Counted from the stretch's first letter, positions 1-20,913 are shown. The stretch is DNA of 20,913 nt from an uncultured Deinococcales bacterium (GCA_964247135.1 CAXTTL010000064.1:1-20913); one strand, 5' to 3'. Program-made: numbers and translations. The notes: a model not told the origin generated them from the sequence alone.

Positions 1-474
1 ACGACGAACGCGGGTGCTTGCCAGCATGACCCTCGAGCCTGGCAGGTACGCCATTGGACTGCGAACCGTGCCACCAATCCGAATCTCGAAATGCAAGTGT
101 GGTCCGGTGCTGTGACCGGTCGAACCGACTTTTGAAATCAGTTGCCCTTGACGCACGATTTGACCCACCCGAACCAGCAGTCTCGAGTTATGGGCGTAAC
201 AGTATTCGCGTCCATCATTGCCGGTGATTTTAATGAAGTTGCCGTAACCGTGTGGATTCCAGCCCGCGAAGTTCACACGACCCGAAAGCGAGGCGTAAAC
301 GGGTGTACCGATTGGCGCGGCAATGTCAATACCAGTATGTCCGTACCGTCCACCGTAACCTTGGGTGATGATCCCTTGGACGGGCCACAATGGGCGCTCT
401 GTGTACCCAAAACCAATTCCTGTAAACGCGGACAGTGCCACAACCAAGACTGCAATTTTACGCAACAGTTTCAA
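1..474 (-). CDS. M23 family metallopeptidase with signal peptide (3' end runs off window; not in ORF track)
   Basis: Manual translation from TTG at 474 (GAGGAG RBS at 480-485): MKLLRKIAVLVVALSAFTGIGFG..WPVQGIITQGYG..HTGIDIAAPIGTPVYA..YAHNS..VGSTGHSTGPHLHFEIR. HxxxD and HxH zinc motifs are present. Confidence 0.92.
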   Translation of the reverse strand, partial: MKLLRKIAVLVVALSAFTGIGFGYTERPLWPVQGIITQGYGGRYGHTGIDIAAPIGTPVYASLSGRVNFAGWNPHGYGNFIKITGNDGREYCYAHNSRLLVRVGQIVRQGQLISKVGSTGHSTGPHLHFEIRIGGTVRSPMAYLPGSRVMLASTRVRR

Positions 475-615
475 AATTTCTCCTCGAGCAATTTGGTTGA
501 TCTTGGCTTCAGTTCAGCGCTCTTGCGGGGTGTAATGCGGCGGAACAATGTGGTCTGAAGACACCAAATTCTGGGGGTGTACACCGTTCGAGCAGACTCG
601 AGGGTGCAACGCGGC

Positions 616-644
616 AGTTTACACGAATCAAAGTGCTAAGCCAA
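616..644 (-). promoter_or_regulatory. Candidate sigma70 promoter of the M23 gene
   Basis: TTGGCT (644-639), 17 nt spacer, TAAACT (621-616) on the minus strand. Confidence 0.45.
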
Positions 645-701
645 GGTTAAAACGCACATGAGAACCGATCATCGTCACTCGAAGTGTAACAAAATGCGTT
701 G

Positions 702-731
702 AGCATGAGTTTCAGTGCTGAAACTCATGCT
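702..731. repeat. Perfect 14-bp inverted repeat (possible terminator or REP-like element)
   Basis: AGCATGAGTTTCAG-tg-CTGAAACTCATGCT, about 90 nt downstream of the KTSC gene. Confidence 0.7.
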
Positions 732-820
732 TAAAATTGTTGAGCATAAATTCGTTCACGGGCGTATAACGCTCTTAAAATTAGCCAGGGCTAAACGCTC
801 GAGCGTCTTTGCAACCCTCA

Positions 821-1051
821 TTAACGCCCTGTTTTACGATCCGACACCTTGGTTTCGTGGTACGACTCGATGATGTTCTGTCGCGCATAACCGCCGTGCG
901 AGGGCGCATTCATCAGTCCCTCGAATTCTTCTGCGGGTACATCCATGTACTGCCAAACCTCTCCGCTTTTAAATTCCAGCTCGAGTGTTTGGGTGACCTT
1001 GTCGTAACCAATGCTTTTGAGCATACTCGAGTTCACGGTTTTGCGATCCAT
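821..1051 (-). CDS. KTSC domain-containing protein
   Basis: MDRKTVNSSMLKSIGYD..TLELEFKSG..YMDVP..LMNAPSHGGY matches the KTSC pattern. ATG at 1051 follows AAGGTGG. Confidence 0.88.
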   Translation of the reverse strand: MDRKTVNSSMLKSIGYDKVTQTLELEFKSGEVWQYMDVPAEEFEGLMNAPSHGGYARQNIIESYHETKVSDRKTGR

Positions 1052-1161
1052 AATTCCCACCTTTTCCACTAAATTGACATAAGCCCAAGCCTGATGATAT
1101 CAAAAAAAGCTGTACAGACCGAGTTTTAACCTCGAGAATCAATATTTTGGGTCTGTAAGCT

Positions 1162-1167
1162 TAGAAT
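1162..1167 (+). promoter_or_regulatory. -10 box of probable leaderless transcript
   Basis: TAGAAT 6 nt before ATG 1174, no SD sequence. Confidence 0.6.
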
Positions 1168-1173
1168 TTTACA

Positions 1174-2001
1174 ATGCCGACTTACGCCATTGGTGACATT
1201 CACGGATGCCTCGATCAAACCCTCGAGTTACTCAGGAGCGCCGAACTGACCGACCGCTCTGGACATTGGGCAGCCCGAGACGCCCAACTGTGGTTTTTGG
1301 GCGACTTTACCGACCGTGGACCTGACGGCATGGGCGTGATTGACCTGGTCATGCGCCTGGAAAAAGAAGCCATTTTTGAGGGCGGTTTTGTCGGGGCGCT
1401 CTTGGGCAATCACGACCTGATTCTGCAAGAGGTTTATCACTTTGGCAACCATGACGTGCCAGGCTTTAAGCGCGTGGGCAAAAAAGTTGGTTTTATTGAC
1501 ATGTGGATGAAAAACGGCGGCAAAATGACCGACCTCGAGCGACTGACGCCAGAGCGGGTTTCGTGGCTTTTAAACCTGCCAGCCCTCGCCAAAGTTGGCA
1601 ATACCTTATTAATGCACGCCGACAACACCTTTTACCTCAATTACGGCTCGAGCATTCAGGAGGTCAACAAAAACATTCACGCCGTCCTGACCGAACACGA
1701 CATGGAAACCATCGATACGCTCGAGGATCAATTCTCCAAGCGGCTCGAATTTGTTGAACCCGACTTTGCGCAACTGGTCAACATTGCGGACTTTGAGGGT
1801 GGTTTTGCCAGGGCGCAAAAGATGCTCGAGACATTTGGTGGCAGCAAAATTGTTCATGGTCACACACCGATTTTTCGCTTGTTGGATCGCTCACCGATAG
1901 AAGTCACCGAGGCTTGGGCGTATCAAAACGGCTTGTGTGTCAACTTGGATCATTGTTTGTACGCGGGTGGCGAAGGCTTTGTCTACGAAATAAGTGGATA
2001 G
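1174..2001 (+). CDS. Calcineurin-like metallophosphoesterase (PPP Ser/Thr phosphatase-like)
   Basis: GDIHG, GDFTDRG, GNHD and HGHT motifs. Confidence 0.92.
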   Translation: MPTYAIGDIHGCLDQTLELLRSAELTDRSGHWAARDAQLWFLGDFTDRGPDGMGVIDLVMRLEKEAIFEGGFVGALLGNHDLILQEVYHFGNHDVPGFKRVGKKVGFIDMWMKNGGKMTDLERLTPERVSWLLNLPALAKVGNTLLMHADNTFYLNYGSSIQEVNKNIHAVLTEHDMETIDTLEDQFSKRLEFVEPDFAQLVNIADFEGGFARAQKMLETFGGSKIVHGHTPIFRLLDRSPIEVTEAWAYQNGLCVNLDHCLYAGGEGFVYEISG

Positions 2002-2184
2002 CAGTTAGCGATTTACCAATCGCTAAACCCTTCAAGCTTTGGCTTGGAAATTTCGAGCCTCTACAAATATAACTTTCATTCCGGTTTGGTTTCTCGAACT
2101 TTAACGCTTTCTTTGTTGTCACTCGAGGTCTTTGGCTAATGGCTAATTGCTATCTTGCTCATCGCCAATCAACCTCTTTCAACG

Positions 2185-2190
2185 TAGAAT
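2185..2190 (+). promoter_or_regulatory. -10 box of probable leaderless transcript
   Basis: TAGAAT 7 nt before ATG 2198. Confidence 0.6.
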
Positions 2191-2197
2191 CCATTTC

Positions 2198-3418: not shown

Positions 3419-3449
3419 ACCTCGAGACAAATCCCGCTGCCTCGAGGTT
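3418..3449. terminator. CTCGAG-based hairpin between convergent genes
   Basis: AACCTCGAG...CTCGAGGTT stem, no clear U-tract. Confidence 0.45.
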
Positions 3450-3510
3450 GGGAAATCAGTTCAAAAACAAATCAAAAACCCGAGTCTTTATTTTTAAAAA
3501 TTGTTGTTCT

Positions 3511-3538
3511 GTAGGGGCGCATGGCAATGCGCCCCTAC
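3511..3538. repeat. GTAG-type REP palindrome
   Basis: GTAGGGGCGCAT-ggca-ATGCGCCCCTAC with perfect 12-bp arms. Confidence 0.75.
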
Positions 3539-3547
3539 GTTGGAATT

Positions 3548-5584
3548 TCAAGCGTGGGCGAGTTCGGCTTTTCTCGAGTTGATGATTTTTTCGGCTTGCA
3601 GGGTTGGAACTTGCGCGTAAGAATCAAATTTGAGGCTGTACACGCCGCGCCCACTGGTCAGGCTGTGCAACTCTGGCGAATAATTTTGCACCTCCGCCAA
3701 TGGCACAAGCGCACTGATGACGGTGACCCCACCTTCGGGGTCCATGCCCTGCACTTTGGCGCGGCGGGTGTTCAGATCGCCCAGAATATCGCCCGTGTAC
3801 CGTTCGGGCACGCGAACTTTTAAGAGCATGATCGGCTCGAGCAGCGCGGGTTTGGCTTTTTCGGCGGCGTTGCGCAGTCCAATGCTGCCCGCCGTTTTGA
3901 ACGCCATGTCCGAGGAGTCCACATCGTGATAACTGCCGTCGTAAACCACGACTTTGATGTTTTGCAAGGGGTATCCCGCCAGTGCGCCGTGATGTCTGGC
4001 TTCTTCCACACCTTTTTCGATGCTGGGAATGTATTTGGTCGGCACCACCCCGCCGATCACTTCGGAGGCAAACTCAAATTCGGCACTCGAGGGTTCAATC
4101 CGCAGCCAGCAGTCGCCGTATTGCCCGTGACCGCCGGATTGCCGTTTGAACTTGCCTTGTGCCTGCGCCGATGCCAGCACCGTTTCGCGGTAGGCAATTT
4201 TGGGCAAACTCGAGGTGATGTTGACGCCGTACAATCCCAGTTTTTCGACCGCAATCTCGAGGTGAGTGTGACCCATGCCCGAGAGCAAACTTTCCGCCGT
4301 TTCGGTGTTGCGAGTCAGGTGAAGCGTGGGGTCTTCCTCGAGCAACTTGCCGAGCGCAGTGCCGAGTTTGTCCTCGTCCGAACGCGTCGCCGCATGAATC
4401 GCCAGGCTCGAGATGGCTTCTGGCAACTCGAGCGGTCCAAAATCAATTTGGTTGTTTGGGTCGCACAGGGTGTCGCCCGTGTGCAAGTCTGGGACTTTGG
4501 TGATCGCGCCAATCATGCCCGCCTCGAGCAACGGCACCTCGATCAATTCCTTGCCGCGCAGGGTGTAGAGGTGCGCGGGTTTGAAATCCCTGTCCGAATG
4601 CGAGTTTCTGACCGTGTCACCTGGGCGCAGTTGCCCGCTCCAGACGCGGACATAAGCGACTTTCCCAACAAAAGGATCAATCGCCGTGCGCCAAACCCGA
4701 GCCGAGAATGGCGCGTCAGTATTTGGCGCTCGAGTTTGCCCGTCAACGCCAACCACTTCGGGGCGCTCTTCGGGTGCTCGGAGCGCCTCGACCATCAAAT
4801 TCAAAAGTGGTTCTAAACCCACCAAACTCGAGGAACTCAGCGGCAAGACCGGAAACAATTCGCCGTGATGCACCGCCTCGAGAAACGCGTTTTTGATTGC
4901 CTCTTCCTCGAGTGGTTCGTCGGACAAATATTGTTCCATCAAGCCTTCATTGGTTTCGACAATCGCCTCAATCAACTTGGTTCGGTGCGCTCGAGTGGAT
5001 TCCGCCAGCGCTTCGGGAATTTCTTGAATCTCGAGTTTACCTTTGTTGTACACATAGGCTTTGTCGGAGAGCAGGTCAATCACGCCGCGAAAATTGCTTT
5101 CCGAACCGATTGGAATGTGCGATGCCACCGCCCGCTGCGACAGCGTGTCATGCACACTGTGCAACGCACCAAAAAAATCTGAATGCTCGCGGTCGAGTTT
5201 GCCCACCACCACAATGCGGGGCATGTTGAACTCGTCCGCCGTTTTCCAGACCCGTTCCGTACCCACCGACACGCCCGAGGTCGCGCTGACCACGATCAAA
5301 CTCGAGTCTGCCGCCCGCATCGCGCCGCGAATTTCACCGACAAAATCGGCGTAACCAGGTGCGTCCAATAAATTCAGGCTCGTATCTTGCCAAGTCAAAT
5401 TCAGCACGCTGGTCGCCACACTCATGCCACGTTTTTTTTCGGTTTCCGTATGATCGCTGGCGGTCGTGCCATCCTCGACGCGTCCCAACCGATCTCGAGC
5501 GCCCGCTTTGAACAGCAAGCCTTCAACCAAACTGGTTTTTCCTGCGCCGTTATGACCGACCACCGAAACGTTTCTGACGCGCAC
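3548..5584 (-). CDS. fusA2: Elongation factor G-like protein (EF-G2)
   Basis: GHNGAGKT, RGMSV, DAPGYADF, GKLD, QSGGHGQYG and YHDVDSS motifs; stand-alone location outside the str operon. GTG 5584 lies 7 nt after GAGGAGGT. Confidence 0.92.
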   Translation of the reverse strand: MRVRNVSVVGHNGAGKTSLVEGLLFKAGARDRLGRVEDGTTASDHTETEKKRGMSVATSVLNLTWQDTSLNLLDAPGYADFVGEIRGAMRAADSSLIVVSATSGVSVGTERVWKTADEFNMPRIVVVGKLDREHSDFFGALHSVHDTLSQRAVASHIPIGSESNFRGVIDLLSDKAYVYNKGKLEIQEIPEALAESTRAHRTKLIEAIVETNEGLMEQYLSDEPLEEEAIKNAFLEAVHHGELFPVLPLSSSSLVGLEPLLNLMVEALRAPEERPEVVGVDGQTRAPNTDAPFSARVWRTAIDPFVGKVAYVRVWSGQLRPGDTVRNSHSDRDFKPAHLYTLRGKELIEVPLLEAGMIGAITKVPDLHTGDTLCDPNNQIDFGPLELPEAISSLAIHAATRSDEDKLGTALGKLLEEDPTLHLTRNTETAESLLSGMGHTHLEIAVEKLGLYGVNITSSLPKIAYRETVLASAQAQGKFKRQSGGHGQYGDCWLRIEPSSAEFEFASEVIGGVVPTKYIPSIEKGVEEARHHGALAGYPLQNIKVVVYDGSYHDVDSSDMAFKTAGSIGLRNAAEKAKPALLEPIMLLKVRVPERYTGDILGDLNTRRAKVQGMDPEGGVTVISALVPLAEVQNYSPELHSLTSGRGVYSLKFDSYAQVPTLQAEKIINSRKAELAHA

Positions 5585-5790
5585 AACAACCACCTCCTCG
5601 AGAACAAAGACGGGTTTGGAAACGCCGAACGGACAACAACCTTGGCTTGGGTTGAACGTCAAGATTGTGGATAGACCTCGAGTCTACACCTCGGGATGCG
5701 GGTGATGCGCTGGGTTTTGAGAATTGGAGACAGGGCTAAAAGTGTGATGACCTTGGTCAATGAGGCTTTCTTCTCAAAACAACGATATTG

Positions 5791-5848
5791 GTAGGGTGCG
5801 CCCTGCGCACCGTTGCACTGTGCTGATGGTGCGCGAGGCGCACCCTAC
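5791..5848. repeat. Inverted REP doublet (REPIN-like)
   Basis: GTAGGGTGCGCCCTGCGCACC (5791-5811), 16-nt spacer, inverted copy GTAGGGTGCGCCTCGCGCACC (5848-5828). Confidence 0.8.
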
Positions 5849-5932
5849 AGGTTTGGTGTGGTTGGGAGGACGATTCGGAATCTTGAGGGTCAACACACTT
5901 TTATGGGTATCTCTCAGAAGTGTTGTGCTAAC

Positions 5933-5969
5933 AAAAAACTCGAGGCAAAAAATATTCTGCCTCGAGTTT
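5933..5969 (-). terminator. Intrinsic terminator of the lipoprotein gene
   Basis: AAACTCGAGGCA / TGCCTCGAGTTT stem ending in a T6 run on the minus strand. Confidence 0.75.
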
Positions 5970-5990: not shown

Positions 5991-6500
5991 TCAGAACAAG
6001 GTCACGGATGCGATCATATCCGTCAATTTTAAAGTCAAGTTGGCACTAAAACCCGATTTGACTTCAAGTCCAAGCCATATTTTCCCAGAGTTGACGGCTT
6101 GTTTTATGACATCGCCACCAATTTCAAAACTGGTTTTGCTGCCCTGCAACGTCAGGTCGCCTGTCAGCTTGGTTTGACTGGCGGCTGGGCACGAAATCAT
6201 CACGCCAAACGAACTGCAATTTGGATCGTTTTTGGGATCGGTGGTGCGTCCGTAAATCACCGCGCCGACGCTGGGCGTACCAATGGAAGCCGCCGAAGCC
6301 TGACCGCGTACCACCACGCTGGCAACGTTGACGGGCGACTGTGAAAAAGCGCTGGCAGCCGATGGGTACATGACGCTGCCAGAGGTTGGGGCGGTCGCAC
6401 CAAAGCTGTAATTTGCGGGGTCAACCGCTATCGAAATCGGCAGGGCATTGCAGGCGCTCAGGGCAACAACCAGTGTGGGCAGTAAGAACAATCGTTTCAT
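5991..6500 (-). CDS. Hypothetical lipoprotein
   Basis: MKRLFLLPTLVVALSA-C lipobox. ATG 6500 lies 7 nt after TGA-TAATTT (extended -10-like). Confidence 0.8.
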   Translation of the reverse strand: MKRLFLLPTLVVALSACNALPISIAVDPANYSFGATAPTSGSVMYPSAASAFSQSPVNVASVVVRGQASAASIGTPSVGAVIYGRTTDPKNDPNCSSFGVMISCPAASQTKLTGDLTLQGSKTSFEIGGDVIKQAVNSGKIWLGLEVKSGFSANLTLKLTDMIASVTLF

Positions 6501-6561
6501 CGGTTTTAAATTATCATCCTGGGACATTTTGGACTGTGCAAAATCCGCAAATTTCAACGCT

Positions 6562-7620
6562 TTACAACACGTCTTTGGTCGTGCCCCTGGCTTTATAATT
6601 CATGTAATTTTTGCGCAACCGAAACGCCGTGTTCATCAAGCTCGAGATGGGTGAAAGACTTTGCTCGTAAGCTGGGAAAAAGACTTTTTGCCCGCCGAGG
6701 CGTTCTTTAAATTCGTAGACACCAAAGCTGTGTTTGTCGCTCGAGATGGTTTTGGGAATGCCGAACAAATCCAGGTACTTGTAACCTTTCGCCATGCCGT
6801 GGCGAATCATGCCCCAGTAAAAACCGTTGCTGGCTTTCGGGTCTTTCTCGCCCTCCTTGCGCTCGAGGCGCGTGCTGCCGCCGTAGAGGTAATTCAGGTC
6901 GTGACCCAGCCCGATAATCAAACCACTGGCGAGCGGAACACCGTCGTAACGCGCCGTGATGATCGTCGCCTCGCCACCGAATTTGTTGCATTCTTTCCAG
7001 ACCGCCTCGTAATAATTTTTTTGGCGCTGCAACAAACTCGAGCGCCTGTTGGTTTCGGAAAAAAGCGCCCAGAAGCTTTCAAAATCGTCTTCGGGCTGTG
7101 CGGTCACGCCCAGTTTCAGGCTGGTGCGGGTGTTGCGCCGCGCCATTTCGTGCATGTTCTTAAAAAACTCGTCTTCGGGTTTGGTCAAATCCAGCAAAAT
7201 CGTGTGCTCGGGTTGAATGGTGCTCGAGTTTTTCCAAACGCCGTAACTTTCGGGAATGTTGCTGCCCGTGCCGTCGGACAAGAGCGGAATCGGTGGTTCG
7301 ATTTTGATGCTGACATCTCCAGCGCCAGCCCAGGCTTTGAGCGCCGCGCCCACGTCCTCGAGTTCGCTAAACGAATTCATGGCGGGACCACGCGGGCAGT
7401 ACAAGAAACTCAAACCCGTTTGCTTGCGCCTTAAGACTTGCGCGGCGGCGAACGGAACGCCGTCACGCTCGAGCTTTAAACGGTGCGGCGTCCAACCGCT
7501 CACGCGGCGCACTTCACCGAAGCCCCAACCTTGCAAAGCGCTGTAATGCGAGAAACTGGTGACGAGTTGATTCCACTCGAGCGGGTCGGAGATGATGGTG
7601 GTGATGATTTTACGGCTCAC
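6562..7620 (-). CDS. FemABX family peptidoglycan bridge peptidyltransferase (lipid II:glycine glycyltransferase-like)
   Basis: LQGWGFGEVR..GW, YCPRGP, IKIEP, QPEHTILLDL, YLYGGS, GVYEFKERLGG. Probable GTG start at 7620, 6 nt after TATCAT. Confidence 0.88.
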   Translation of the reverse strand: MSRKIITTIISDPLEWNQLVTSFSHYSALQGWGFGEVRRVSGWTPHRLKLERDGVPFAAAQVLRRKQTGLSFLYCPRGPAMNSFSELEDVGAALKAWAGAGDVSIKIEPPIPLLSDGTGSNIPESYGVWKNSSTIQPEHTILLDLTKPEDEFFKNMHEMARRNTRTSLKLGVTAQPEDDFESFWALFSETNRRSSLLQRQKNYYEAVWKECNKFGGEATIITARYDGVPLASGLIIGLGHDLNYLYGGSTRLERKEGEKDPKASNGFYWGMIRHGMAKGYKYLDLFGIPKTISSDKHSFGVYEFKERLGGQKVFFPAYEQSLSPISSLMNTAFRLRKNYMNYKARGTTKDVL

Positions 7621-9401: not shown

Positions 9402-10310
9402 ATGAAACTAAGCATGATCGGTTTGGGTCGTATGGGTGGCAACATGACGCGTCGTCTGATGAAAGCGGGACATGCTGTGGTGGCGTTTGATCGCAACCCT
9501 GAAACGGTGCAGGCGTATGCGCTCGAGGGTGCAATCGCCGCCAGTTCACTCGAGGATGCCGTGGCTAAATCCCGAGCAGACGGTCAACCTGCGGTCATTT
9601 GGGTGATGGTTCCCAGCGGCAAACCGACGCTGGATACGGTGCTCGAGGCGGCAAAGCATTTGCAAAAGGGCGACATCATCATCGATGGCGGCAACAGTTT
9701 TTACAAGGATTCGATTCAAACAGGTTTACAACTCGAGGCGCTCGGCATTCATTACATCGATTGCGGCACTTCGGGCGGAATTTGGGGTCTCGAGAATGGT
9801 TACTGCCTGATGGTGGGCGGTTCAGATGAGTCGTGTAAGGTTTGCGAACCGATTTTCCTGGCGTTGGCACAGGAAGGTGGCTATTTGCACGCGGGTGTTT
9901 CAGGCGCGGGGCATTTCACCAAAATGGTTCACAACGGCATCGAGTACGGCATGATGCAAGCCATCGGTGAGGGTTTGGACATCATCGAGTCCAGCCCGTT
10001 CAAGGTCGATTTGCACGCTTTAACCAACCTTTGGAATCACGGTTCGGTGGTGCGCAGTTGGCTGATGGAACTCGCGGAACGCGCCTTTGCGTCTGAACCT
10101 CACCTCGAGAGCATCAAGGATTACGTCGAAGATTCCGGCGAGGGTCGTTGGACGATTCAAACGGCGATGGAATACAACGTACCGGCGCCAATTATTACGC
10201 TGTCGTTGCTCGAGCGTTTTCACTCGAGGGACGATGTTTCATTTAGTGCCAAGGTGGTGGCGGCGCTGCGCAATCAGTTCGGTGGTCATGCGGTGAAAAA
10301 AGAGGGTTAA
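9402..10310 (+). CDS. gnd: Decarboxylating 6-phosphogluconate dehydrogenase (short YqeC type)
   Basis: IGLGRMG, WVMVP.G, IDGGNS, GTSGG, GHFTKMVHNGIEYG, DSGEGRW, RNQFGGHAV. TAAACT lies 6 nt before the ATG. Confidence 0.95.
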   Translation: MKLSMIGLGRMGGNMTRRLMKAGHAVVAFDRNPETVQAYALEGAIAASSLEDAVAKSRADGQPAVIWVMVPSGKPTLDTVLEAAKHLQKGDIIIDGGNSFYKDSIQTGLQLEALGIHYIDCGTSGGIWGLENGYCLMVGGSDESCKVCEPIFLALAQEGGYLHAGVSGAGHFTKMVHNGIEYGMMQAIGEGLDIIESSPFKVDLHALTNLWNHGSVVRSWLMELAERAFASEPHLESIKDYVEDSGEGRWTIQTAMEYNVPAPIITLSLLERFHSRDDVSFSAKVVAALRNQFGGHAVKKEG

Positions 10311-10344
10311 GATCGCAGTTCACAGCATTTTTAGATTGTTCAAT

Positions 10345-10380
10345 GTTGCTCGAGAACTGATTTCTCGAGCAACTTATTGT
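10345..10380 (+). terminator. Intrinsic terminator of gnd
   Basis: GTTGCTCGAGAA-ctgat-TTCTCGAGCAAC (12-bp perfect stem) followed by a T-rich tail. Confidence 0.7.
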
Positions 10381-10505
10381 TTTGTTTAGTCTTGCCTGAA
10401 AAGTGCGTTGGGGTATTTCTATTTCTGCAAAGCCTGTGTTAACATGCCCTTCAGGCAAAAAGCCAAAGTTGAGTGCTCGTTTCGTTTGTCATGTCTGCTA
10501 CGGCA

Positions 10506-10519
10506 TGGAAGCGTTACCA
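10506..10519. promoter_or_regulatory. LacI/GalR-family operator candidate
   Basis: TGGAAGCGTTACCA pseudo-palindrome with central CG, upstream of the sugar ABC operon. Confidence 0.65.
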
Positions 10520-10558
10520 AATCACTTAAACTGTCCGCTTCTCGAGGAGGAGAAGGTT

Positions 10559-11797
10559 ATGAAAATGAGGAACACAGCAGTTGTCGCAGCACTCACGGTT
10601 GCATTGGGCTTGGGTATCGCCAGCACCCAGAGCACAGGCAAAATTTCGATCTGGACGGATTTCAAAGGTGGAGAACTCGCATGGTTCACCGCCGCCGCCA
10701 AAGCGTTCGAGGCAACCCCAGCCGCCAAGGGCGCAAAGCTCGAGTTAACAAGCGTGATCTTGGGCGAAACCCGTGACAAATTCATTCAAGCCGCTCCAAA
10801 GGGCGAAGGTCCAGATTTGATCGCCACCATCCCTCACGACCAAATTGGTGAATTCGTGACGGCGGGCGTGCTCGAGCCGATGACCAAATACTTGGACGCC
10901 AAGACCAAAGCCGACACCCAAGCCAGCGCGATTGACGCGTTCAACTACAAGGGCAAATTGTTCGGTTTGCCAATGTGGAGCGAAGCCGTTGCGGTGGTTT
11001 ACAACAAGAAGCTGATCAAAAGCATTCCAAGCAACTGGGATGCCTTTATCGCCGCCGCCCAAAAGCTGACCAACCCAGAAAAGCAAGAATTTGGTTTCCT
11101 GGCTCCAATCGGCATTCAGTACCACATGAACGGCATTTACCGTGCCTTTGGCGCTTATGTGTTCGGTAAGAACAAAGACGGCAGCCTGAACCCACAAGAC
11201 ATCGGTCTTGCCAACGAGGGCGCTGTCAAAGCCGCCCAGACCATCAACGACTTGCGTTTCAAGTACAAGTTGATCCCAGAAGGCACCGAAAATCCTGATC
11301 TCGAGAAGGACTTGTTCACCAAAGGCAAAGTTGCCATGTGGTTGACCGGACCTTGGGACATGAGCGCCGTCAAGGACGCCAAGATCGATTACGGCATTGG
11401 CTTGTTGCCCAAACCAACCGGTGCGCCAAACAAGTGGTCACCGTTCATTGGTGTGCGCGGTTTGGTCATGAACGCGTATTCCAAGAACAAAGATGTGGCT
11501 GCGGCATTCGCGCAGTACCTGATCTCGAAGGAAAGCCAAATCAGCCTCAACCAAGAAGGTGGACGCTTGCCCATCTCCAAGAGCGCCCTGATTCAACTCA
11601 AAGGCGACCCAACCGTCAAAGGCTTCGGCGCCGCATCGGCTGCCGGTATCGCCATGCCAAACATTGCCGAAATGGGCAGCGTTTGGGGTCCTTGGGGCGA
11701 TGCGCTGAACCTTTCGATCAAAACCGCCAACCCTGACTTTGCCGACCTGCACAAAAAGGCTGTGGCAGCCATTTTGGGCGCGATCAACAAGAAGTAA
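10559..11797 (+). CDS. malE: Maltose/maltodextrin ABC transporter substrate-binding protein
   Basis: Signal peptide, GEGPDL..PHDQIG, YNKKL, TGPW, PFIGV, MPNIAEMGSVW. ATG 10559 follows GAGGAGG. Confidence 0.88.
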   Translation: MKMRNTAVVAALTVALGLGIASTQSTGKISIWTDFKGGELAWFTAAAKAFEATPAAKGAKLELTSVILGETRDKFIQAAPKGEGPDLIATIPHDQIGEFVTAGVLEPMTKYLDAKTKADTQASAIDAFNYKGKLFGLPMWSEAVAVVYNKKLIKSIPSNWDAFIAAAQKLTNPEKQEFGFLAPIGIQYHMNGIYRAFGAYVFGKNKDGSLNPQDIGLANEGAVKAAQTINDLRFKYKLIPEGTENPDLEKDLFTKGKVAMWLTGPWDMSAVKDAKIDYGIGLLPKPTGAPNKWSPFIGVRGLVMNAYSKNKDVAAAFAQYLISKESQISLNQEGGRLPISKSALIQLKGDPTVKGFGAASAAGIAMPNIAEMGSVWGPWGDALNLSIKTANPDFADLHKKAVAAILGAINKK

Positions 11798-11815
11798 CTC
11801 GAGCTTCTCGAGCAC

Positions 11816-11845
11816 GCGCCCCGTCCCATTTCTGGGGTGGGGCGC
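11816..11845 (+). terminator. Intercistronic stem-loop after malE (mRNA stabiliser or partial terminator)
   Basis: GCGCCCCGTCCCA-tttc-TGGGGTGGGGCGC. Confidence 0.6.
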
Positions 11846-11965
11846 ATTTGTTTATCAGAAGGTTTTATTTTGACCAAGATTTTTATGCTATTGCACCACA
11901 AATTGATCGCCAAGACCTGAATAAACTCGAGAAATCAAGAAATTCCAAATTAAAGGGGTGAGTGT

Positions 11966-13408
11966 ATGGCAAGCGTAGTGCGAACACGAACACGAGAGAA
12001 AGTCGCCAACGGAGGTTTTTTTGGGCTGGGTTCGACCACACCGCCCGAAGGCGCTGCGGGGGCAGCCCTGGCAATCGCTTTGGTGCTCGGCATTTGTTTT
12101 CTGGCGCTGGCGCTGGGCTTGTTGCTCGCCAATGGTTTGAACGCCCTGGCGGACGCCCAACATTGGGACGAACCCAAACGGTATTGGTTGCTGGCATTTA
12201 CCGTGCTTGCCATGATTCCAATTTTGCTGGTGGCGGTCAGGATCATGCCCTGGTTGTCCAATTGGTATTATTTGCTGCCAGCCATCGTGTGTTTGCTGGC
12301 GTTTACGATTTACCCAATTGTGCTGACCTTTTACTTTGCATTCACCAATTACAGCGCCATCAACAGCGGCGAACCCGACTCGAGCGCCCAGATTGAAGTC
12401 AAAATTCTTAACCCCACCACGCTATCGGTGCTGAGTGGTGCGGTTGCCGCCACCGATTTGCGCTGCGAAACACCAGATTGTGCCGGTCGAAGGGTGGCAT
12501 TTCTCGATGACCGTGGCAGCACCATCAAAAAAGTCTTGACCAACATTGCCAACGTCGATGGCAGTACCATCACCTTAAGCTCCGCCCTGCCCGAAGGCTT
12601 GACCGCCACGCGCCTCAGCCGCGTGAACGACATCAAGCTGGTGGGTTTTGGTAATTTCTCGAGAATCTTTGCCCAAGCCAGCCAACAGTTGCTGCCGATT
12701 TTTATCTGGACGGTTGAATTTGCGGTTTTCACCACCATCATCAACGTGGTTTTTGGGGTGCTGCTGGGAATTTTGATCAACAACCGCCGTCTTAAATTTC
12801 GCAATGTTTACCGCTCCTTGTTGTTTTTACCCTGGGCTGTGCCTGCGGTCATCAGCATTCAAATGTGGACCAAATTGCTCGACGCCAACTTTGGGGCGCT
12901 GAACAGGTTGTTTGGCTTTGTCGGTTTAAACCCTGCACCCTGGCTGATCGACGGACTTTGGGCAAAAGCCGCGATTTTGCTGGTGAATTTGTGGCTCGGC
13001 TTTCCGTACATGATGACCGCCACCGTCGGCGCGTTGTCCTCCATTCCAGACGAATTGTACGAGGCTGCCGAAATTGACGGCGCAAACCGTTGGAATCAAA
13101 CCCGTTTTATCACCCTGCCGATGTTAACCGCTGCTTTTACCCCAATTATTCTGGGAACATTCGCCTATAACTTCAATAACTTCGGCATTATTTACCTGCT
13201 TACGGGTGGCAAACCCATCGAAACTGGACAACTGCCGACCGCACACAGCACGGATATTCTGCTTTCCTGGGGCTACAACACTGCCTTTTTGAACGGCATC
13301 GACCGTGGCATGGCGAGCGCCATTGCGGTACTGGTCGCGTTTTTGACCATCGGCATCAGCATGGTCAACTTCAGTGTCGCCGGTGTCTTTAAGGAGGCAA
13401 GGAAATGA
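11966..13408 (+). CDS. malF: Maltose/maltodextrin ABC transporter permease MalF-type
   Basis: AFTNYS, large periplasmic loop, LPWAVP, VNLWLGFPYMM, YEAAEIDGA EAA loop, NFNNF. Confidence 0.88.
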   Translation: MASVVRTRTREKVANGGFFGLGSTTPPEGAAGAALAIALVLGICFLALALGLLLANGLNALADAQHWDEPKRYWLLAFTVLAMIPILLVAVRIMPWLSNWYYLLPAIVCLLAFTIYPIVLTFYFAFTNYSAINSGEPDSSAQIEVKILNPTTLSVLSGAVAATDLRCETPDCAGRRVAFLDDRGSTIKKVLTNIANVDGSTITLSSALPEGLTATRLSRVNDIKLVGFGNFSRIFAQASQQLLPIFIWTVEFAVFTTIINVVFGVLLGILINNRRLKFRNVYRSLLFLPWAVPAVISIQMWTKLLDANFGALNRLFGFVGLNPAPWLIDGLWAKAAILLVNLWLGFPYMMTATVGALSSIPDELYEAAEIDGANRWNQTRFITLPMLTAAFTPIILGTFAYNFNNFGIIYLLTGGKPIETGQLPTAHSTDILLSWGYNTAFLNGIDRGMASAIAVLVAFLTIGISMVNFSVAGVFKEARK

Positions 13409-14778
13409 CTTCAGGTTCTGGCAATTCGGGTTCTGGACAAGTCTCAAGCTCGAGCTTTTCGTGGCAGAGTATTGTGGGTTGGGTTTTGGGGGCGGCATTG
13501 CTGGCGTTTACCGTCATCACCGTTCGGGATTTAGCCTCGAGGGTGCTGCCGCGTTCGTTTGCGGTGATGTACCCCGAAAACGGTGGGCGCAACGTGCTGC
13601 TGGGCTTGCTGGGCGCGGTGGCACTGATTTTTTTCACCTCTTATATCGGTAAGCTTTGGGGCGAGCGCACGCGTCAGGGTCGTAAAATCAATTACTGGGC
13701 GATCATGACCGATCAGTTGACGCATTTGTTCTTCTGGATTTTTATTCTGGTTGCCTTGTACCCCATTATTTTTGTGGTCAGCGCCTCGTTCGACCCGCGC
13801 AACACCCTGACCGACGCCAGCCTTGGCGACACCGGACCGCTGATCGTGCAAGCCAAAGTCTTACCGAGTCTCGAGGGCAAGGATTTTAGCAATTACGAAT
13901 CGCTCTTTAAAGGCGTGGTGATTGCCCCCTGGCAAATTCTGGGGCTAGCGGTTTTTGTGCTGGGTATTTTGGGCATCGCGGCGCTGTGGTTTGCGGTGCA
14001 AGCCAACGGTGGCAAAACCAACGCTGGCATCAATCAAAACCGAACTCGAGCCTACTGGGCAATAGCGCTGGGTTTGCTGGTGTTTTTCGGCACGCTCGGA
14101 CCCTCGCAATTTACGGGCGACGGCAGCCTCGAGGCAAAGTTTTTGCTGTGGTTGCGCAACACCTTTATCATCTCGACCATCACTGGGGTCTTGACCGTGA
14201 TGCTGACCACCACGGTGGGTTATGCGATGGCGCGGCTTCGTTTCCCAGGGCGTTTTCAGGTCTTGCTGTTCTTTATTTTCGTCCAGATGTTTCCCGTGTT
14301 TTTGGCAGCCGTGGCGATTTATGACCTGATGTACCGCCTGGGCTTGCTGGGCAGTTTTGCGGGTTTGATTCTGGCGTACTCTGGTGGGTCTATCGCTTAC
14401 GGCACCTGGATTTACAAGGGTTACGTCGAAAGCCTGCCCCCAAGCCTCGAGGAGGCGGCGCTGGTGGACGGCTGCACCCGTTGGACGGCGTTTACCAAGG
14501 TCGTGCTGCCGCTTTCGGGTCCGATGCTGGTGTTTATTTTCTTGCAGCAATTTATTGGCACGTATGCCGAATTTTTCTTGGCGAATATTCTGCTTGCCGC
14601 TGGCGTGGACAACTGGAACATCGGTTTAGGACTTCGTAGCTTCGCACAGCAATTTACCGCCGAGTACGGCAAGTTCAGCGCGGCTGCGGTGCTCGGTGCG
14701 TTGCCGATTGTTGCCTTGTTTTACGGCTTTCAACAATTCTTTGTTTCTGGCGCACTTTCGGGCGGCGTCAAAGAATAA
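13405..14778 (+). CDS. malG: Maltose/maltodextrin ABC transporter permease MalG-type
   Basis: YAMARLRFPGR, QMFP, SLEEAALVDG EAA loop, C-terminal GGVKE; ATGA overlap with malF. Confidence 0.88.
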   Translation: MTSGSGNSGSGQVSSSSFSWQSIVGWVLGAALLAFTVITVRDLASRVLPRSFAVMYPENGGRNVLLGLLGAVALIFFTSYIGKLWGERTRQGRKINYWAIMTDQLTHLFFWIFILVALYPIIFVVSASFDPRNTLTDASLGDTGPLIVQAKVLPSLEGKDFSNYESLFKGVVIAPWQILGLAVFVLGILGIAALWFAVQANGGKTNAGINQNRTRAYWAIALGLLVFFGTLGPSQFTGDGSLEAKFLLWLRNTFIISTITGVLTVMLTTTVGYAMARLRFPGRFQVLLFFIFVQMFPVFLAAVAIYDLMYRLGLLGSFAGLILAYSGGSIAYGTWIYKGYVESLPPSLEEAALVDGCTRWTAFTKVVLPLSGPMLVFIFLQQFIGTYAEFFLANILLAAGVDNWNIGLGLRSFAQQFTAEYGKFSAAAVLGALPIVALFYGFQQFFVSGALSGGVKE

Positions 14779-17456: not shown

Positions 17457-17475
17457 AAGTTTGTTCTACAATGAG

Positions 17476-17509
17476 TTGAAGGCACCCTCTTTTTGGAGGG
17501 TGCCTTCAA
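17476..17509. terminator. Hairpin between convergent genes (probable bidirectional terminator)
   Basis: TTGAAGGCACCCTC-tttttg-GAGGGTGCCTTCAA, 14-bp perfect stem. Confidence 0.75.
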
Positions 17510-17531
17510 GCTTTGGTGCCCGAAGAAAATA

Positions 17532-18340: not shown

Positions 18341-18346
18341 GGCTTC

Positions 18347-18388
18347 AAACTAAGCGCGTTGGTTGAACCGGAGCTGATGGCACGTTGA
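18347..18388 (-). promoter_or_regulatory. Leaderless promoter with three phased TCA(A/G) repeats
   Basis: YTGA at 18385, 18374 and 18363; 10 nt; TAGTTT (18352-18347); 6 nt; ATG. Confidence 0.6.
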
Positions 18389-18398
18389 CCCTCAGCAA

Positions 18399-18432
18399 AA
18401 AAGTCATTTGAAAACAAAAGTCATTTGAGAAC
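18399..18432. repeat. 2 x 17-bp tandem repeat
   Basis: AAAAGTCATTTGAAAAC / AAAAGTCATTTGAGAAC. Confidence 0.8.
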
Positions 18433-18447
18433 AGCATTTTGGTGCCA

Positions 18448-18897
18448 TCAAGAGCCTTGCATCGGAATAATCGAAATGCTGCCATTGCGCTCGAGCACCG
18501 CGTAACGAACCTGCTCCAAACGCTCGAGTCCCTGCAAAGCGCGGGCTGCCTCGAGAATGTCGTCCTCATCGACTTGAGCTTGACGCATACGTTCGCGCAA
18601 CGGCTGACCGTTGCTGACCAGCACCACCGGCACATCATCGAGCAAGCGCTCCAAACGTTTGGAACGAAGCTTTAATACGCTCAGCACAATATCGAGTGCC
18701 ACCAGGCTCAAAATGGAAAGAAAGGCTCCGGTCAACGAGTGATCCTCATTGGTCAAGGCGTTCTGAACCGCCGAGGAGATGATCAGCACCAGCACCAAAT
18801 CAAAAGGTGTGGCTTGGGCGAGTGTCCGTTTGCCAAACAAACGAAACACCAGCAACAAAAACACGTAAAGTACAGCCGCTTTGAGTACAGTATCCAT
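18448..18897 (-). CDS. DUF421 / YetF-family membrane protein
   Basis: [39 protein letters not shown]. Confidence 0.9.
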
Positions 18898-18905
18898 ATC
18901 GACCT

Positions 18906-19400
18906 TTAAGGATAAACAAACTGCGAAAACCCGAGGCTTCCGGCTGGAGACTCAGAACCAAGTACGCCCGAAAGCGCTCCCGCCCGCATGGGTCGAAACT
19001 GAAACCTGACCTCGAGGTCATCAAAAGCGACAAACTCAAAATCGGTTTCCGAACCCCTGACCTGAACCTGGCGGGGTTCGGGAGCGACGGACTCGAGATC
19101 GATGTCCTGCAAGAAACTTTTGTTGAGCGACAGGCTGGCTTTGTGCTGCCGGTCTGCTCTCAGTTGAACGCGCAATTCGCTCGGGGTGTTGTAACGCAGG
19201 AAAAAGTCGTAATCCAAATGCAAGGTCTTGTTTTCAAGCGTCCGGGCGCTGAGTGGTCCTGAACCAAACAATCCTGCCAGAGCCGCAAGAATCAACACCA
19301 ACATGCCAAACCAAATCAGGCGCTCGAACCTCCACTGCCAGTTCTGAAACTCGAGGTCCTCTGGCTGCTCAAAAGAGGCTTGAAGTTGGTTTTCGCTCAC
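18906..19400 (-). CDS. Hypothetical single-TM membrane protein
   Basis: [22 protein letters not shown] overlap with the SDR stop; 8 nt from the DUF421 gene. Confidence 0.75.
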
Positions 19401-20242
19401 GTGTTCACAACCTCGCCGCCATTGGGGTGCAAAAACTGTCCAGTAAAATATGAAGCATCATCGGAGGCGAGAAAGACAAAACTTGGTGCGACCTCCTCCG
19501 GTTGTCCTGGGCGTTTCATGGGGGTATCCTTACCAAATTTTTTGACCTTGTCTTTGGGAAAGGTCGAGACGATCAGCGGCGTCCAAATTGGACCAGGAGC
19601 CACCCCGTTGACCCGAATTCCACGGTCTGCCAAATTGGCTGAGAGCGAACGTGTGAAGGCAACAATCGCGCCTTTGGTGCTCGAGTAATCAAGCAGTTGT
19701 TCACTGCCTCGGTAGGCTGTGACCGAGGCGGTATTGATGATCGCTGAACCCTTTTTAAGATGCGGCAAAGCAGCTTTGACCATGTAAAAATAAGCGAAGA
19801 TGTTGGTGCGAAAAGTACGCTCGAGCTGTTGGGCACTGATCTTTTCAATACCCGGTTGTGGCTGCTGCTCGGCGGCATTGTTGACCAGAACATCCAAATG
19901 CCCGTGTCCGTGAATGACTTTCTCGAGCACTTCAAAGCAAAATTTTTCATCACCGACATCACCAGCAATGCAGGTACAACTGCGACCATGCGCCTCCACC
20001 AATTGTCTGGTTTTTTCGGCATCCTCATGCTCATTTAAATAGACAATCGCCACATCTGCGCCCTCGGCGGCAAAGGCAACCGCCACCGCGCGACCAATCC
20101 CGCTGTCACCACCCGTAATCAATGCCACCCGACCCTCGAGTTTTCCTGCGGCTCGGTAATCTCGGTCTTGGCTTTTGGGTTGAGGTTGCATTTGGCTCTG
20201 TAGTCCAGGACGACGACTTTGGCTTGTGGCAGTTTTGGGCAT
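19397..20242 (-). CDS. SDR oxidoreductase of the YhdF/YdaD (general stress protein 39)/YghA type
   Basis: PGLQSQMQPQP, GKLEGRVALITGGDSGIGRAVA, NNAAEQ, YSSTK, PGPIWTPL, R.GQPEE. ATG 20242 follows AAAGGAG. Confidence 0.92.
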   Translation of the reverse strand: MPKTATSQSRRPGLQSQMQPQPKSQDRDYRAAGKLEGRVALITGGDSGIGRAVAVAFAAEGADVAIVYLNEHEDAEKTRQLVEAHGRSCTCIAGDVGDEKFCFEVLEKVIHGHGHLDVLVNNAAEQQPQPGIEKISAQQLERTFRTNIFAYFYMVKAALPHLKKGSAIINTASVTAYRGSEQLLDYSSTKGAIVAFTRSLSANLADRGIRVNGVAPGPIWTPLIVSTFPKDKVKKFGKDTPMKRPGQPEEVAPSFVFLASDDASYFTGQFLHPNGGEVVNT

Positions 20243-20592
20243 AAAGACTCCTTTGGATTTACCAAATTCCAAGTGCGCTGTGATGGTCCAAATGATGCTC
20301 TAGCAAAATCAATCAAAACATCACAAAACCAAGTTGTGGCTTCGTGCTCGAGGCTGATCAAACTCACCAAATTCGAGTGTGACCGTGACCGAAACTTCGA
20401 GTAAAACCCTTGGCGCTTGACTTTAAACTAAAGGCGAAGACTGTCCATTGGCTTTTGCGCAACTGAAGAACAGTTGAAACTCGGGAACCTTTTGACTCCT
20501 AAGTCGATTTGAGTGAACTGCAAGAGTTGTAACACTCGAGCTACAAATTGCTCAAGTCTCACCCCTGATTCCGTCTTAGACACTCTTTCCTT

Positions 20593-20634
20593 TGGCGGGT
20601 CGTGCATGGCTCGAACCTACGACCTGTGGTTTTG
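20593..20634 (-). pseudogene. Degenerate 3' half of a tRNA (probably Trp); putative att site of an integrative element
   Basis: CAAAACCAC-AGGTC-GTAGG-TTCGAGC-CATGC-ACGACCC-G-CCA gives variable loop, T arm (1 mismatch), acceptor 3' strand and CCA. No 5' half upstream. Confidence 0.72.
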
Positions 20635-20705
20635 AAAAAGGGTTAAGCAAAAATGTACGGGTAAATCTATTCTATGAAACCACATTTGACCAAATTCTGC
20701 CGATT

Positions 20706-20912
20706 TCAACTGCCGTATTTTGAGCTATAGCACATGGAATTTGGTCGCTCGAGCGACGGATGTTGAATGTGGCAACCCAGTCTGGCGATGGCGGCGATGA
20801 TGGTTGGGTGGACTGGGTAAAACGCGTAGAAGGCATGTTGCAGCCTATCGGAGACTCGAGGTTCATTGGAAGTGCGAACTCGAGCCGCAAGCGCCCAGAA
20901 ACCGATTGTGGT
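20706..20912 (-). CDS. C-terminal fragment of a TraX-family membrane protein (possibly degenerate; 5' end outside window)
   Basis: Open frame ..IGFWALAAR..RLQHAFYAFYPVHPTIIAAIARL..; FYxFYPxH is the typical TraX C-terminal motif. Confidence 0.5.
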   Translation of the reverse strand, partial: TTIGFWALAARVRTSNEPRVSDRLQHAFYAFYPVHPTIIAAIARLGCHIQHPSLERPNSMCYSSKYGS

Positions 20913-20913
20913 G

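Follow-up and report, generated by a model that had tools for sequence, protein, structure and literature searches.

We analysed a 20,913-bp stretch of DNA from an uncultured Deinococcales bacterium (GCA_964247135.1, CAXTTL010000064.1:1-20913), referred to below as the window, which is contig C64 of a metagenome-assembled genome (MAG) of 5,091,702 bases in 386 contigs that is 84% complete. The window (GC content 0.505-0.550) carries 17 called genes whose Pfam names identify them as ordinary housekeeping genes, among them an EF-G paralog, BirA, BioY, a 6PGDH-like gene, a sugar ABC transporter and an SDR gene; no tRNA gene was found in it, and the MAG yielded no 16S rRNA gene. The feature that concerns us is the six-base palindrome CTCGAG, which occurs 123 times in the window (5.9 per kb), close to the count of about 120, or 1 per 170 bp, given in the initial annotation. 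In 100 dinucleotide-preserving shuffles of the window, the mean number of CTCGAG sites was 3.67 (standard deviation 1.92, maximum 8), and none of the 100 reached 123. The expectation of 5-6 sites in the initial annotation agrees with a zero-order model; the dinucleotide model gives 3.7. Sites were found in coding and intergenic DNA and in all three codon phases, both here and genome-wide, as the initial annotation had described: by our gene calls, 56 of the window sites are in phase CTC-GAG (Leu-Glu), 29 in phase nnC-TCG-AGn and 10 in phase nCT-CGA-Gnn, and 28 of the 123 are not entirely within any called gene. Genes were called as open reading frames (ORFs) of at least 90 codons, scored with an iteratively trained codon model and reduced to a greedy non-overlapping set, which resulted in 4,009 genes over 79.6% of the genome.

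We observed the same excess throughout the genome. There are 33,925 copies of CTCGAG in the 5,091,702 bases, corresponding to 6.66 per kb and to an observed/expected ratio (O/E) of 24.8 under a zero-order model. No other hexamer approaches this number: those ranked next are words that overlap CTCGAG, and the most frequent one without such overlap has 6,081 copies. The lowest density on any of the 386 contigs is 2.56 per kb and the median is 6.8, indicating that the enrichment extends well beyond the contig in which it was noticed; it also survives control for codon usage, as described below. Under Markov models of order 0, 1, 2, 3 and 4, a comparison suggested in the initial annotation, the O/E for the whole genome is 24.8, 35.2, 14.4, 3.45 and 1.24, respectively. 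The drop at high order is circular: CTCGAG accounts for 33,925 of the 38,652 CTCGA pentamers (88%), such that high-order models absorb the word itself.

We compared the number of sites in called genes with that expected after shuffling synonymous codons within genes (10 replicates). Called genes contain 26,833 sites (6.63 per kb), a 7.2-fold excess over the 3,738 expected, with 16,855 observed and 2,954 expected in phase CTC-GAG (5.7-fold), 3,864 and 250 in phase nCT-CGA-Gnn (15.4-fold), and 6,114 and 534 in phase nnC-TCG-AGn (11.5-fold). Uncalled DNA contains a further 7,098 sites (6.78 per kb), and in spacers of 30-300 bp (1,977 pieces, GC content 0.469) there are 2,181 sites (9.2 per kb) compared to 50.5 expected (43-fold), consistent with the view of the initial annotation that protein composition alone is not a sufficient explanation. 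The synonymous shuffle is conservative because it retains the protein sequence and a gene codon usage already inflated by CTCGAG; permuting codons within genes reduces the expectation to 1,554 sites, giving a 17-fold excess, and the difference between the two null models indicates that protein sequence is affected by CTCGAG. Leu-Glu is the most over-represented dipeptide, with an O/E of 2.37, compared to 1.01 for Glu-Leu, 0.73 for Val-Glu and 0.51 for Met-Glu, and 16,855 of the 21,642 Leu-Glu dipeptides (77.9%) are encoded as CTCGAG, although the shares of CTC among Leu codons and of GAG among Glu codons are only 25% and 46.5%, respectively. The proportion of synonymous opportunities that are realised is thus 77.9% in the Leu-Glu phase, and is 41.7% and 49.1% in the other two phases; conversely, 44% of CTC, 45% of GAG, 32% of CGA and 29% of TCG codons lie inside CTCGAG sites. 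In the EF-G-like gene of the window, 8 Leu-Glu sites can be aligned with two Deinococcus orthologs, which show Leu-Glu at only 3 of them.

The words that differ from CTCGAG by one base have zero-order O/E values of 0.5-1.8, transitions being the commonest, and the sole exceptions are the two that contain CTAG. The depletion of one-mismatch neighbours for which the initial annotation had proposed to look was therefore not seen at zero order, and the deamination neighbours CTTGAG and CTCAAG, with O/E values of 1.16-1.18, are likewise not depleted. CTAG itself is avoided genome-wide (O/E 0.07). Apart from CTCGAG, the avoidance of palindromes in this genome is extreme: GGCC has 380 copies (O/E 0.02), and more than 20 palindromic hexamers have an O/E below 0.1, for example GGGCCC with 1 copy, CGGCCG with 3, AGGCCT with 4, CGTACG with 5 and GGATCC with 7. 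GGCC has an O/E of 0.00-0.06 in two genera of the family to which the genome belongs, and its avoidance is weaker (0.21-0.72) in high-GC genera.

We next consider the placement of the sites. The bases flanking CTCGAG are near random, indicating that CTCGAG is not part of a longer repeat, with a weak mirrored preference A-N-G-CTCGAG-C-N-T that is alike in genes and spacers (A at position -3, 0.41 in non-coding and 0.35 in coding DNA; G at -1, 0.36 and 0.40; mirrored C at +1 and T at +3). Site density is level at 6-7 per kb around the starts and ends of genes, and peaks only in the first 20 bases past stop codons (14 per kb) and at -40 to -21 of starts (9.5 per kb). Pairs of nearby sites are in some cases lengthened into a longer inverted repeat: extensions of 3 bp or more are seen in 243 of 1,326 close non-coding pairs and in 252 of 4,649 close coding pairs, and extensions of 5 bp or more in 118 and 41, respectively. 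One such pair in the window forms a perfect inverted repeat directly past a stop codon, and looks like a terminator made from CTCGAG (Table 1).

Table 1. Coordinates of features in the window and of the loci elsewhere that are discussed in the text.
Feature	Location	Strand	Remarks
Whole window	1..20913		123 CTCGAG over housekeeping genes and spacers
EF-G-like gene	3548..5662	-	18 CTCGAG; Deinococcus orthologs have 0 or 1
Terminator-like hairpin	5936..5969		Two CTCGAG (5939-5944, 5961-5966) are the core of a perfect 12-bp inverted repeat; arms 5936-5947 and 5958-5969, 10-nt loop, then T's; directly past the stop of minus-strand gene 5991-6557
6PGDH-like and sugar ABC transporter genes	9402..14778	+	Best-aligned stretch for the six-species count of site gain and loss
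Very close CTCGAG pair	11798..11812		Starts 9 bp apart; rare spacing
Further close CTCGAG pairs	14805/14814, 2426/2440, 10209/10223, 10349/10364		Site positions
Short dispersed repeats	5790-5850, ~3463-3545, ~9903-9959, ~13032-13119		
Antisense long ORFs	3926-4816, 6661-7434, others	+	257-296 codons; antisense to EF-G-like and FemAB-like genes
Gamma-class methylase, genome G016	L170:1099-3323		Eco57I and TaqI_C domains
Dam-class methylase, contig C320	L381:1064-2985		Beside SacI-family nuclease homolog
Solitary PF01555 methylase, contig C36	L382:3011-4057		349 aa
DarB-like antirestriction methylase-helicase, contig C112	L387:1671-6167	-	1,499 aa

The mean gap between sites is 148 bp, with a coefficient of variation of 0.96, which is slightly more even than random, and only 3 gaps exceed 2 kb. 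Short gaps are scarce genome-wide, being found at 0.25 times the geometric expectation below 10 bp and at 0.55 times between 10 and 20 bp. A gap of exactly 6 is never seen, since two sites so placed would generate GAGCTC, a word that is missing altogether from the 5.09-Mb genome. We measured this interference as the fraction of Leu-Glu dipeptides written as CTCGAG according to the distance to the nearest other site, compared to permutation within genes (standard deviation at most 0.02). The observed fraction was 0.15 with another site less than 9 bp away (permuted 0.67), 0.45 at 9-15 bp (permuted 0.72), 0.67 at 15-24 bp (permuted 0.75), 0.745 at 24-36 bp (permuted 0.77), and 0.82-0.87 at 48-192 bp (permuted 0.79-0.80), indicating that CTCGAG sites repel one another within about 30 bp. 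We rejected selection for long-range 'coverage', as CTCGAG use plateaus (0.82-0.87) beyond about 40-100 bp and the deficit relative to permutation is found only below 36 bp; a deficit of gaps of 300-1,000 bp is attributable to the short-range exclusion.

The window also contains short dispersed repeats (Table 1), which are present in dozens of copies in all five of the same-genus genomes described below. The repeat at 5790-5850 is a hairpin of the form GTAGGGTGCGC...GCGCACCCTAC and looks REP-like. Long ORFs that run antisense to called genes were considered as genes and discarded by the codon-model gene calls; they probably reflect stop-poor antisense frames in DNA of this base composition.

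We then measured the abundance of CTCGAG across the order in a sample of 121 genomes, of which 19 represent the family of the window's genome (f1); all 19 were examined. Thirteen of these are incomplete MAGs (57-92% complete), one (G030) is closed, and one (G005) is 94% complete. The word GCTCGAGC has 838-4,448 copies in every one of the 19 family genomes, compared to 0-165 for its reversed control, and has 7-199 copies in the 26 genomes of a Deinococcus-like genus (g7) and 4-19 copies in the 16 genomes of a Thermus-like genus (g9). Hyper-abundant CTCGAG is thus a trait of the whole family and not of the Deinococcus-like or Thermus-like genera. Similarly, nine EF-G-like loci in 'Deinococcales bacterium' records (74-96% amino acid identity) have CTCGAG O/E values of 16.5-29.1, and those of Deinococcus pimensis and of a Deinococcaceae MAG have values of 0.3-0.4. 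We also determined CTCGAG O/E in one 12-20-kb sample from each of 36 genomes. Five family genomes (20-kb samples) have O/E values of 12-33 and 4-8 sites per kb at GC contents of 0.46-0.62, and in all likelihood the family holds CTCGAG at about 4-8 copies per kb irrespective of GC content (46-62%). Most other lineages sampled have O/E values of 1.4-9, CTCGAG mostly being their top palindromic hexamer; two low-GC genomes of another family (G103 and G107) have an O/E of 8, or 12-16 after dinucleotide correction, and one Deinococcus-like genome has zero CTCGAG in its sample. In high-GC relatives, CTCGAG and its reversal GAGCTC are both frequent, as a preference for the codons CTC and GAG would give.

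To describe the turnover of sites, we aligned the window with five species of the same genus, which are about 85% identical to it in DNA sequence and form a star-like tree with pairwise identities of 0.84-0.89. The numbers of window sites kept in the five species are 67 of 82, 65 of 89, 55 of 66, 87 of 104 and 76 of 95 (73-84%), compared to 0.42-0.50 for control hexamers in genes. Non-coding sites are kept in 9 of 16 to 13 of 17 cases (56-76%), compared to 0.27-0.36 for control hexamers. In a second 20-kb region on another contig, 51 of 71, 53 of 73 and 19 of 24 sites are kept, compared to 0.40, 0.48 and 0.50 for controls; in its two flanks, for which same-genus orthologs are lacking, the densities are 2.6 and 4.6 sites per kb, compared to 6.5 in the shared core. 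The examination of gain and loss in ortholog alignments that the initial annotation had called for therefore gives retention of 72-84% at CTCGAG against 40-50% at controls. There are 115 aligned positions with a site in at least one of five or six genomes, of which 57 are fully conserved. We identified 22 losses confined to a single lineage, 17 of them single transitions (8 in the central CG, 5 at positions 2/5 and 4 at positions 1/6), and 9 single-lineage gains, whose ancestors differ from CTCGAG at various positions, some by two or three bases. In the EF-G-like gene, 12 of 17 alignable sites are kept in a same-genus species, compared to 0.48 for control hexamers. A comparison across genera, at about 68% nucleotide identity, finds just 3-5 of 16-18 sites of this gene in the same place, controls giving 0.11-0.16; the excess is weak. 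Hence, the density of sites stays constant between genera while their positions turn over.

CTCGAG is also abundant in DNA that looks mobile. Contig C112, which encodes a DarB-like methylase-helicase and an HNH nuclease, has 3.5 sites per kb, and contig C75, which is phage-like, with many unknown genes in the same orientation and a weak terminase-like match, has 3.45 per kb. These values, from a small sample, are about half the genome density yet 10-14 times expectation, and fit a process that acts on any resident DNA in proportion to its time of residence. Taken with the segments that lack same-genus orthologs, also a small sample, density is lower in recently acquired DNA. The C112 locus, a mobile element, encodes a DarB-like antirestriction methylase-helicase (Table 1), with the HNH endonuclease and an ATPase nearby. 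We scanned IMG/VR for records with three CTCGAG within about 80 bases, and discarded the CTCGAG-dense records as phages of this family, since the densest among the matches listed are of high GC content (64-72%), a codon-usage effect; among the listed matches, 4 of the 5 that were counted whole carry GAGCTC at no less than half the count of CTCGAG (for example, 276 vs 305 and 135 vs 67). Nine sequencing runs matched 5-7% of sampled words, all as assembled contigs.

The initial annotation had suggested, as one possibility, that the sites are generated by methylation-directed repair, and had proposed to look for orphan methylases and Vsr-like nucleases that co-occur with the enrichment. Vsr (PF03852) was found in none of the 19 family genomes, including that of the window, and the XhoI nuclease (PF04555) is found in 0 of 19 family genomes and 6 of 121 genomes in the order. 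The XhoI-family nucleases of the order that have an adjacent methylase number five intact and one decayed among the 121 genomes, and their methylases are of two types. Relatives of the beta-class type are found in 25 of 121 genomes, none of them among the 19 of the family; Thermus-like genomes, in which CTCGAG is rare (GCTCGAGC, 4-19 copies), account for most. The gamma-class type (Table 1) adjoins, in genome G016, an XhoI gene decayed by two stop codons. Orthologs of this methylase (43-61% identity) are found in 8 further genomes from three families, and in the six loci scanned (in G103, G107, G061, G069, G029 and G043) it stands alone among housekeeping genes, so that, judging from these loci, it looks like an old orphan methylase of the order. 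At these loci (L171-L176), a neighbouring N-acetylmuramoyl-L-alanine amidase gene is kept in three genomes of two families. The gamma-class methylase has an ortholog in 0 of 19 family genomes, with just partial relatives of 26-31% identity in 4 of 19. Gamma-like proteins of 577-607 aa are encoded by G025, G010 and G055 of the family. Outside the family, the median dinucleotide-corrected CTCGAG O/E is 10.2 in the nine genomes that carry it and 2.8 in 22 others, a comparison drawn from one 12-20-kb sample per genome among related, non-independent genomes, and with the CTCGAG specificity of the enzyme deduced from one neighbouring pseudogene. The co-occurrence of methylase and enrichment for which the initial annotation had proposed to look is therefore seen outside the family and not within it, and Vsr-type generation of the sites is unsupported in the family, leaving the methylation idea weakened but not dead.

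We also searched for any methylase common to the family. The window's genome has methylase-type genes with 5 hits to PF01555, 2 to PF00145, 3 to PF07669, 1 to PF02086 and a further 1 to PF02384, and NCBIfam gave no specificity names for the methylases. Across the 19 genomes, the five methylase Pfam families searched yielded no ortholog group that is universal. PF01555 is absent from three family genomes, one of them the closed G030. In five good genomes, neither the PF07669 genes nor the PF00145 genes are mutually orthologous, and 5-methylcytosine methylases are not orthologous between genomes. PF02086 (Dam-class) genes form two conserved groups that are each limited to 7 of 19 family genomes, and both are missing from G005, where the enrichment is the highest of any genome sampled. 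Group B adjoins a SacI-family nuclease, and therefore fits the total absence of GAGCTC. On contig C320 of the window's genome, a Dam-class methylase lies beside a SacI-family nuclease homolog (Pfam RE_SacI, E = 8e-07), a pair kept at 72-83% identity in the closed relative G030. We rejected as drivers this Dam-class gene, since it is paired with the SacI-like nuclease; a 258-aa PF01555 enzyme on contig C189, since it is strain-specific (best match 41% among the other 120 genomes); and two MmeI-like enzymes and the DarB-like giant, since they are of non-palindromic or mobile types. Contig C36 encodes a solitary PF01555 methylase (Table 1) with an SPPF motif, situated between fabF-like and alaS genes with no evident nuclease partner, and PF01555 genes that resemble it in ORF length and score are found in G070 and G025. 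A matching methylase may have escaped recognition, since specificity is not readable from sequence; absences from the 13 incomplete MAGs are weak on account of their incompleteness, and the argument leans on G030 and G005. Of the uptake genes, ComEC and DprA were each matched in 18 of 19 family genomes; each also matches 10-11 of 14 control genomes, including E. coli.

The closest known counterpart of this element is HIP1, the highly iterated palindrome (HIP) of cyanobacteria (GCGATCGC); Elhai (2015, PMC4390886) lists the alternate HIPs GGCGCC, GCsGC and rCCGGy, and reports a matching methylase wherever an alternate HIP is frequent. In Xu, Lawrence and Durand (2018, PMC5861425), conservation of HIP1 sites is attributed to selection, with binding or chromosome structure proposed, and HIP1 is described as periodic in its distribution over 10-90 kb. 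HIP1 is further reported to raise transformation efficiency in Synechococcus PCC 7002, where it is discussed as Chi-like or uptake-related, and to co-vary with genes of the DNA-uptake machinery. Like HIP1 and the alternate HIPs, CTCGAG is a short GC-rich palindrome, at least 15-fold enriched, found in all frames and in intergenic DNA, shared by a lineage, conserved across species above background and scarcer in newly acquired DNA. By contrast with HIP1, CTCGAG is found in Deinococcota, is a different word of six rather than eight bases, occurs at about 6,700 per Mb compared to the 300-2,700 per Mb quoted for HIP1, nearly saturates its synonymous opportunities and marks dipeptide composition, and has no matching methylase that we could find in the family. 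The element is not HIP1 itself, which is cyanobacterial and associated with the methylases DmtA and DmtC: the HIP1 core CGATCG has 47 copies in this genome (O/E 0.03). We consider it very probable that CTCGAG here is a highly iterated palindrome of the HIP kind that extends across the family. This upholds the proposal in the initial annotation of a non-cyanobacterial system of this type: CTCGAG spans the genome and the family, occupies every frame as well as spacers, exceeds the level that codon usage would produce, and is conserved in position. No description of hyper-abundant CTCGAG in Deinococcota was found in the open-access literature, subscription journals and supplements being outside the search.

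Three other systems bear comparison. Uptake sequences, such as the DNA uptake sequence (DUS) of Neisseria and the uptake signal sequence (USS) of Pasteurellaceae, are non-palindromic words of 9-12 bases found about once per kb, with a known receptor for DUS. CTCGAG resembles them in being a word over-represented genome-wide, in genes and spacers, that forms inverted pairs resembling terminator stems, affects protein sequence, is scarce in foreign DNA and is accompanied by competence genes; it differs in being a six-base palindrome, 6-7 times denser, to which the flanks add only a weak symmetric preference. Restriction-modification systems of the XhoI/PaeR7I type share the recognition word, and pairs of an XhoI-family nuclease and a methylase are found in the same order, but none was found in the 19 CTCGAG-rich genomes, and restriction predicts neutrality or avoidance of sites rather than a 25-fold excess. 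Finally, very-short-patch repair by Dcm and Vsr in E. coli raises the frequency of CCWGG, an effect that is small and confined to the T/G deamination neighbour. It sets a precedent in that a preference in repair makes a methylase site more frequent; here, however, none of the 19 genomes yielded Vsr, the deamination neighbours show no depletion, and every position of the site is subject to gain and loss.

The explanation we favour is a fixation bias that acts on the whole CTCGAG site, a form of molecular drive, through a symmetric reader and probably by biased repair of heteroduplexes. We infer this mechanism tentatively, and would put its probability at roughly 0.4. Under this explanation, at each of the six positions, changes that complete a site would have a raised chance of fixation and changes that break one a lowered chance. 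The agent would be a symmetric dimeric protein that recognises CTCGAG in double-stranded DNA, which fits the weak mirrored flanks, and that tips mismatch or heteroduplex repair during replication or recombination toward the strand carrying the complete site, either with methylation by an unrecognised enzyme or without methylation. The pressure overrides codon preference and replaces amino acids, and halts where a neighbouring site lies within about 30 bp or where the avoided GAGCTC would arise. We favour a fixation bias because the pressure is local, near-saturating, blind to gene context, protein-changing, active on mobile DNA and exerted at all six positions. Biased repair as the cause, rather than selection for use of the site, and the nature of the agent are the parts of this account that we propose rather than observe.

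Several observations weigh against a fixation bias. Conservation of existing sites is equally expected from selection for function. Interference below 30 bp is not predicted by a repair bias that is strictly independent at each site, so that a protein footprint or a penalty on hairpins, for instance, would have to be assumed in addition. No agent was found: none of the 19 family genomes yielded Vsr, the XhoI nuclease or an ortholog of either type of XhoI-linked methylase, and no methylase ortholog group runs through the whole family. In addition, the counts of gain and loss rest on about 16 kb of six-way alignment, and the gene calls are our own.

CTCGAG might instead be a signal for DNA uptake or recombination that marks the DNA of the clade, CTCGAG-rich fragments being preferred, as occurs with the uptake sequences of Neisseria and Haemophilus and has more recently been suggested for HIP1; we regard this as doubtful. 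The effect of HIP1 on transformation and its co-variation with uptake genes, both noted above, are consistent with such a role, as are the scarcity of sites in accessory and mobile-looking DNA, the terminator-like hairpins that pairs of sites make after genes, and the alteration of proteins by CTCGAG, which parallels that by Haemophilus uptake sequences. The intact ComEC and DprA genes merely fail to refute it, and carry little weight given their matches in control genomes. On the other hand, with one site per 150 bp a fragment contains many, so that the marginal gain from another would be tiny, yet 78% of Leu-Glu dipeptides are filled. Moreover, interference reaches about 30 bp rather than the kilobase scale of an uptake fragment, phage-like and plasmid-like contigs are still at 10-14 times expectation, and no receptor is known, nor was one sought.

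A second alternative, which follows Elhai's model for HIPs, is that an orphan CTCGAG methylase marks the sites, and that methyl-directed repair or another use of the mark, such as strand discrimination, replication or gene control, makes and keeps them, the enzyme of the family being of an unrecognised type. The gamma-class methylase beside a decayed XhoI gene, its solitary orthologs and the higher O/E of the genomes that hold it all point in this direction, as does the pairing of alternate HIPs with methylases in Elhai (2015, PMC4390886). We nonetheless consider it unlikely, since the hyper-enriched family yielded neither the gamma-class ortholog nor the beta-class type, which is present in Thermus-like genomes where GCTCGAGC is rare, and neither Vsr nor a universal methylase group; the gamma-class association itself is subject to the non-independence of genomes and the single pseudogene noted above.

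A third alternative, that CTCGAG is the binding site of an abundant nucleoid or regulatory protein and is selected for chromosome structure, is improbable. Conservation of sites in genes and spacers, symmetric flanks, an exclusion of about 30 bp that resembles a protein footprint and a spacing slightly more even than random are all compatible with it, but site positions turn over between genera at constant density, density is flat relative to gene starts, and mobile DNA bears CTCGAG too. Selection strong enough to change amino acids at each of about 34,000 sites would also be demanding. The last alternative, a by-product of codon, dipeptide or base composition or a dispersed repeat, is suggested by high-GC relatives and viral records rich in both CTCGAG and GAGCTC and by the fourth-order Markov fit (O/E 1.24), but a compositional artefact is excluded by the enrichment of spacers and of the phases other than Leu-Glu, the use of CTCGAG for Leu-Glu far beyond its codon frequencies, the near-random flanks and the circularity of the high-order fit.

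Fixation bias as favoured here could also take a stronger form. CTCGAG may be driven by a new type of sequence drive, in which a reader that dispenses with a canonical methylase, restriction nuclease or Vsr would fill nearly every position permitted by the code, and alter amino acids, in the chromosome and in resident mobile DNA across the family. This we offer as a speculative proposal, and think it more probably wrong than right.

CTCGAG is a real HIP-like element and a denser counterpart of HIP1 in another phylum; for its driver we can only infer a candidate. HIP1 has been unexplained for about thirty years and studied only in cyanobacteria, and the case in Deinococcota provides an independent comparison, in which a gene set or property common to both the HIP1 and the CTCGAG lineages becomes a candidate cause. 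In practice, CTCGAG offers a strong marker with which to bin these MAGs and to recognise foreign DNA in them, k-mer or codon-based analyses of the clade are biased by it, and XhoI-type enzymes would cut DNA of the clade into very small pieces unless it is modified. The gradient across the order, from none in Deinococcus-like genomes through 3-16-fold in lineages with the solitary methylase to 12-33-fold in the family, is a natural series for the methylation hypothesis. If the new type of drive is real, then words of the HIP type would be a general, convergent outcome of bias in site-directed repair or recombination rather than a cyanobacterial oddity, and this family, with its shorter and denser word, would be the better system for finding the agent.

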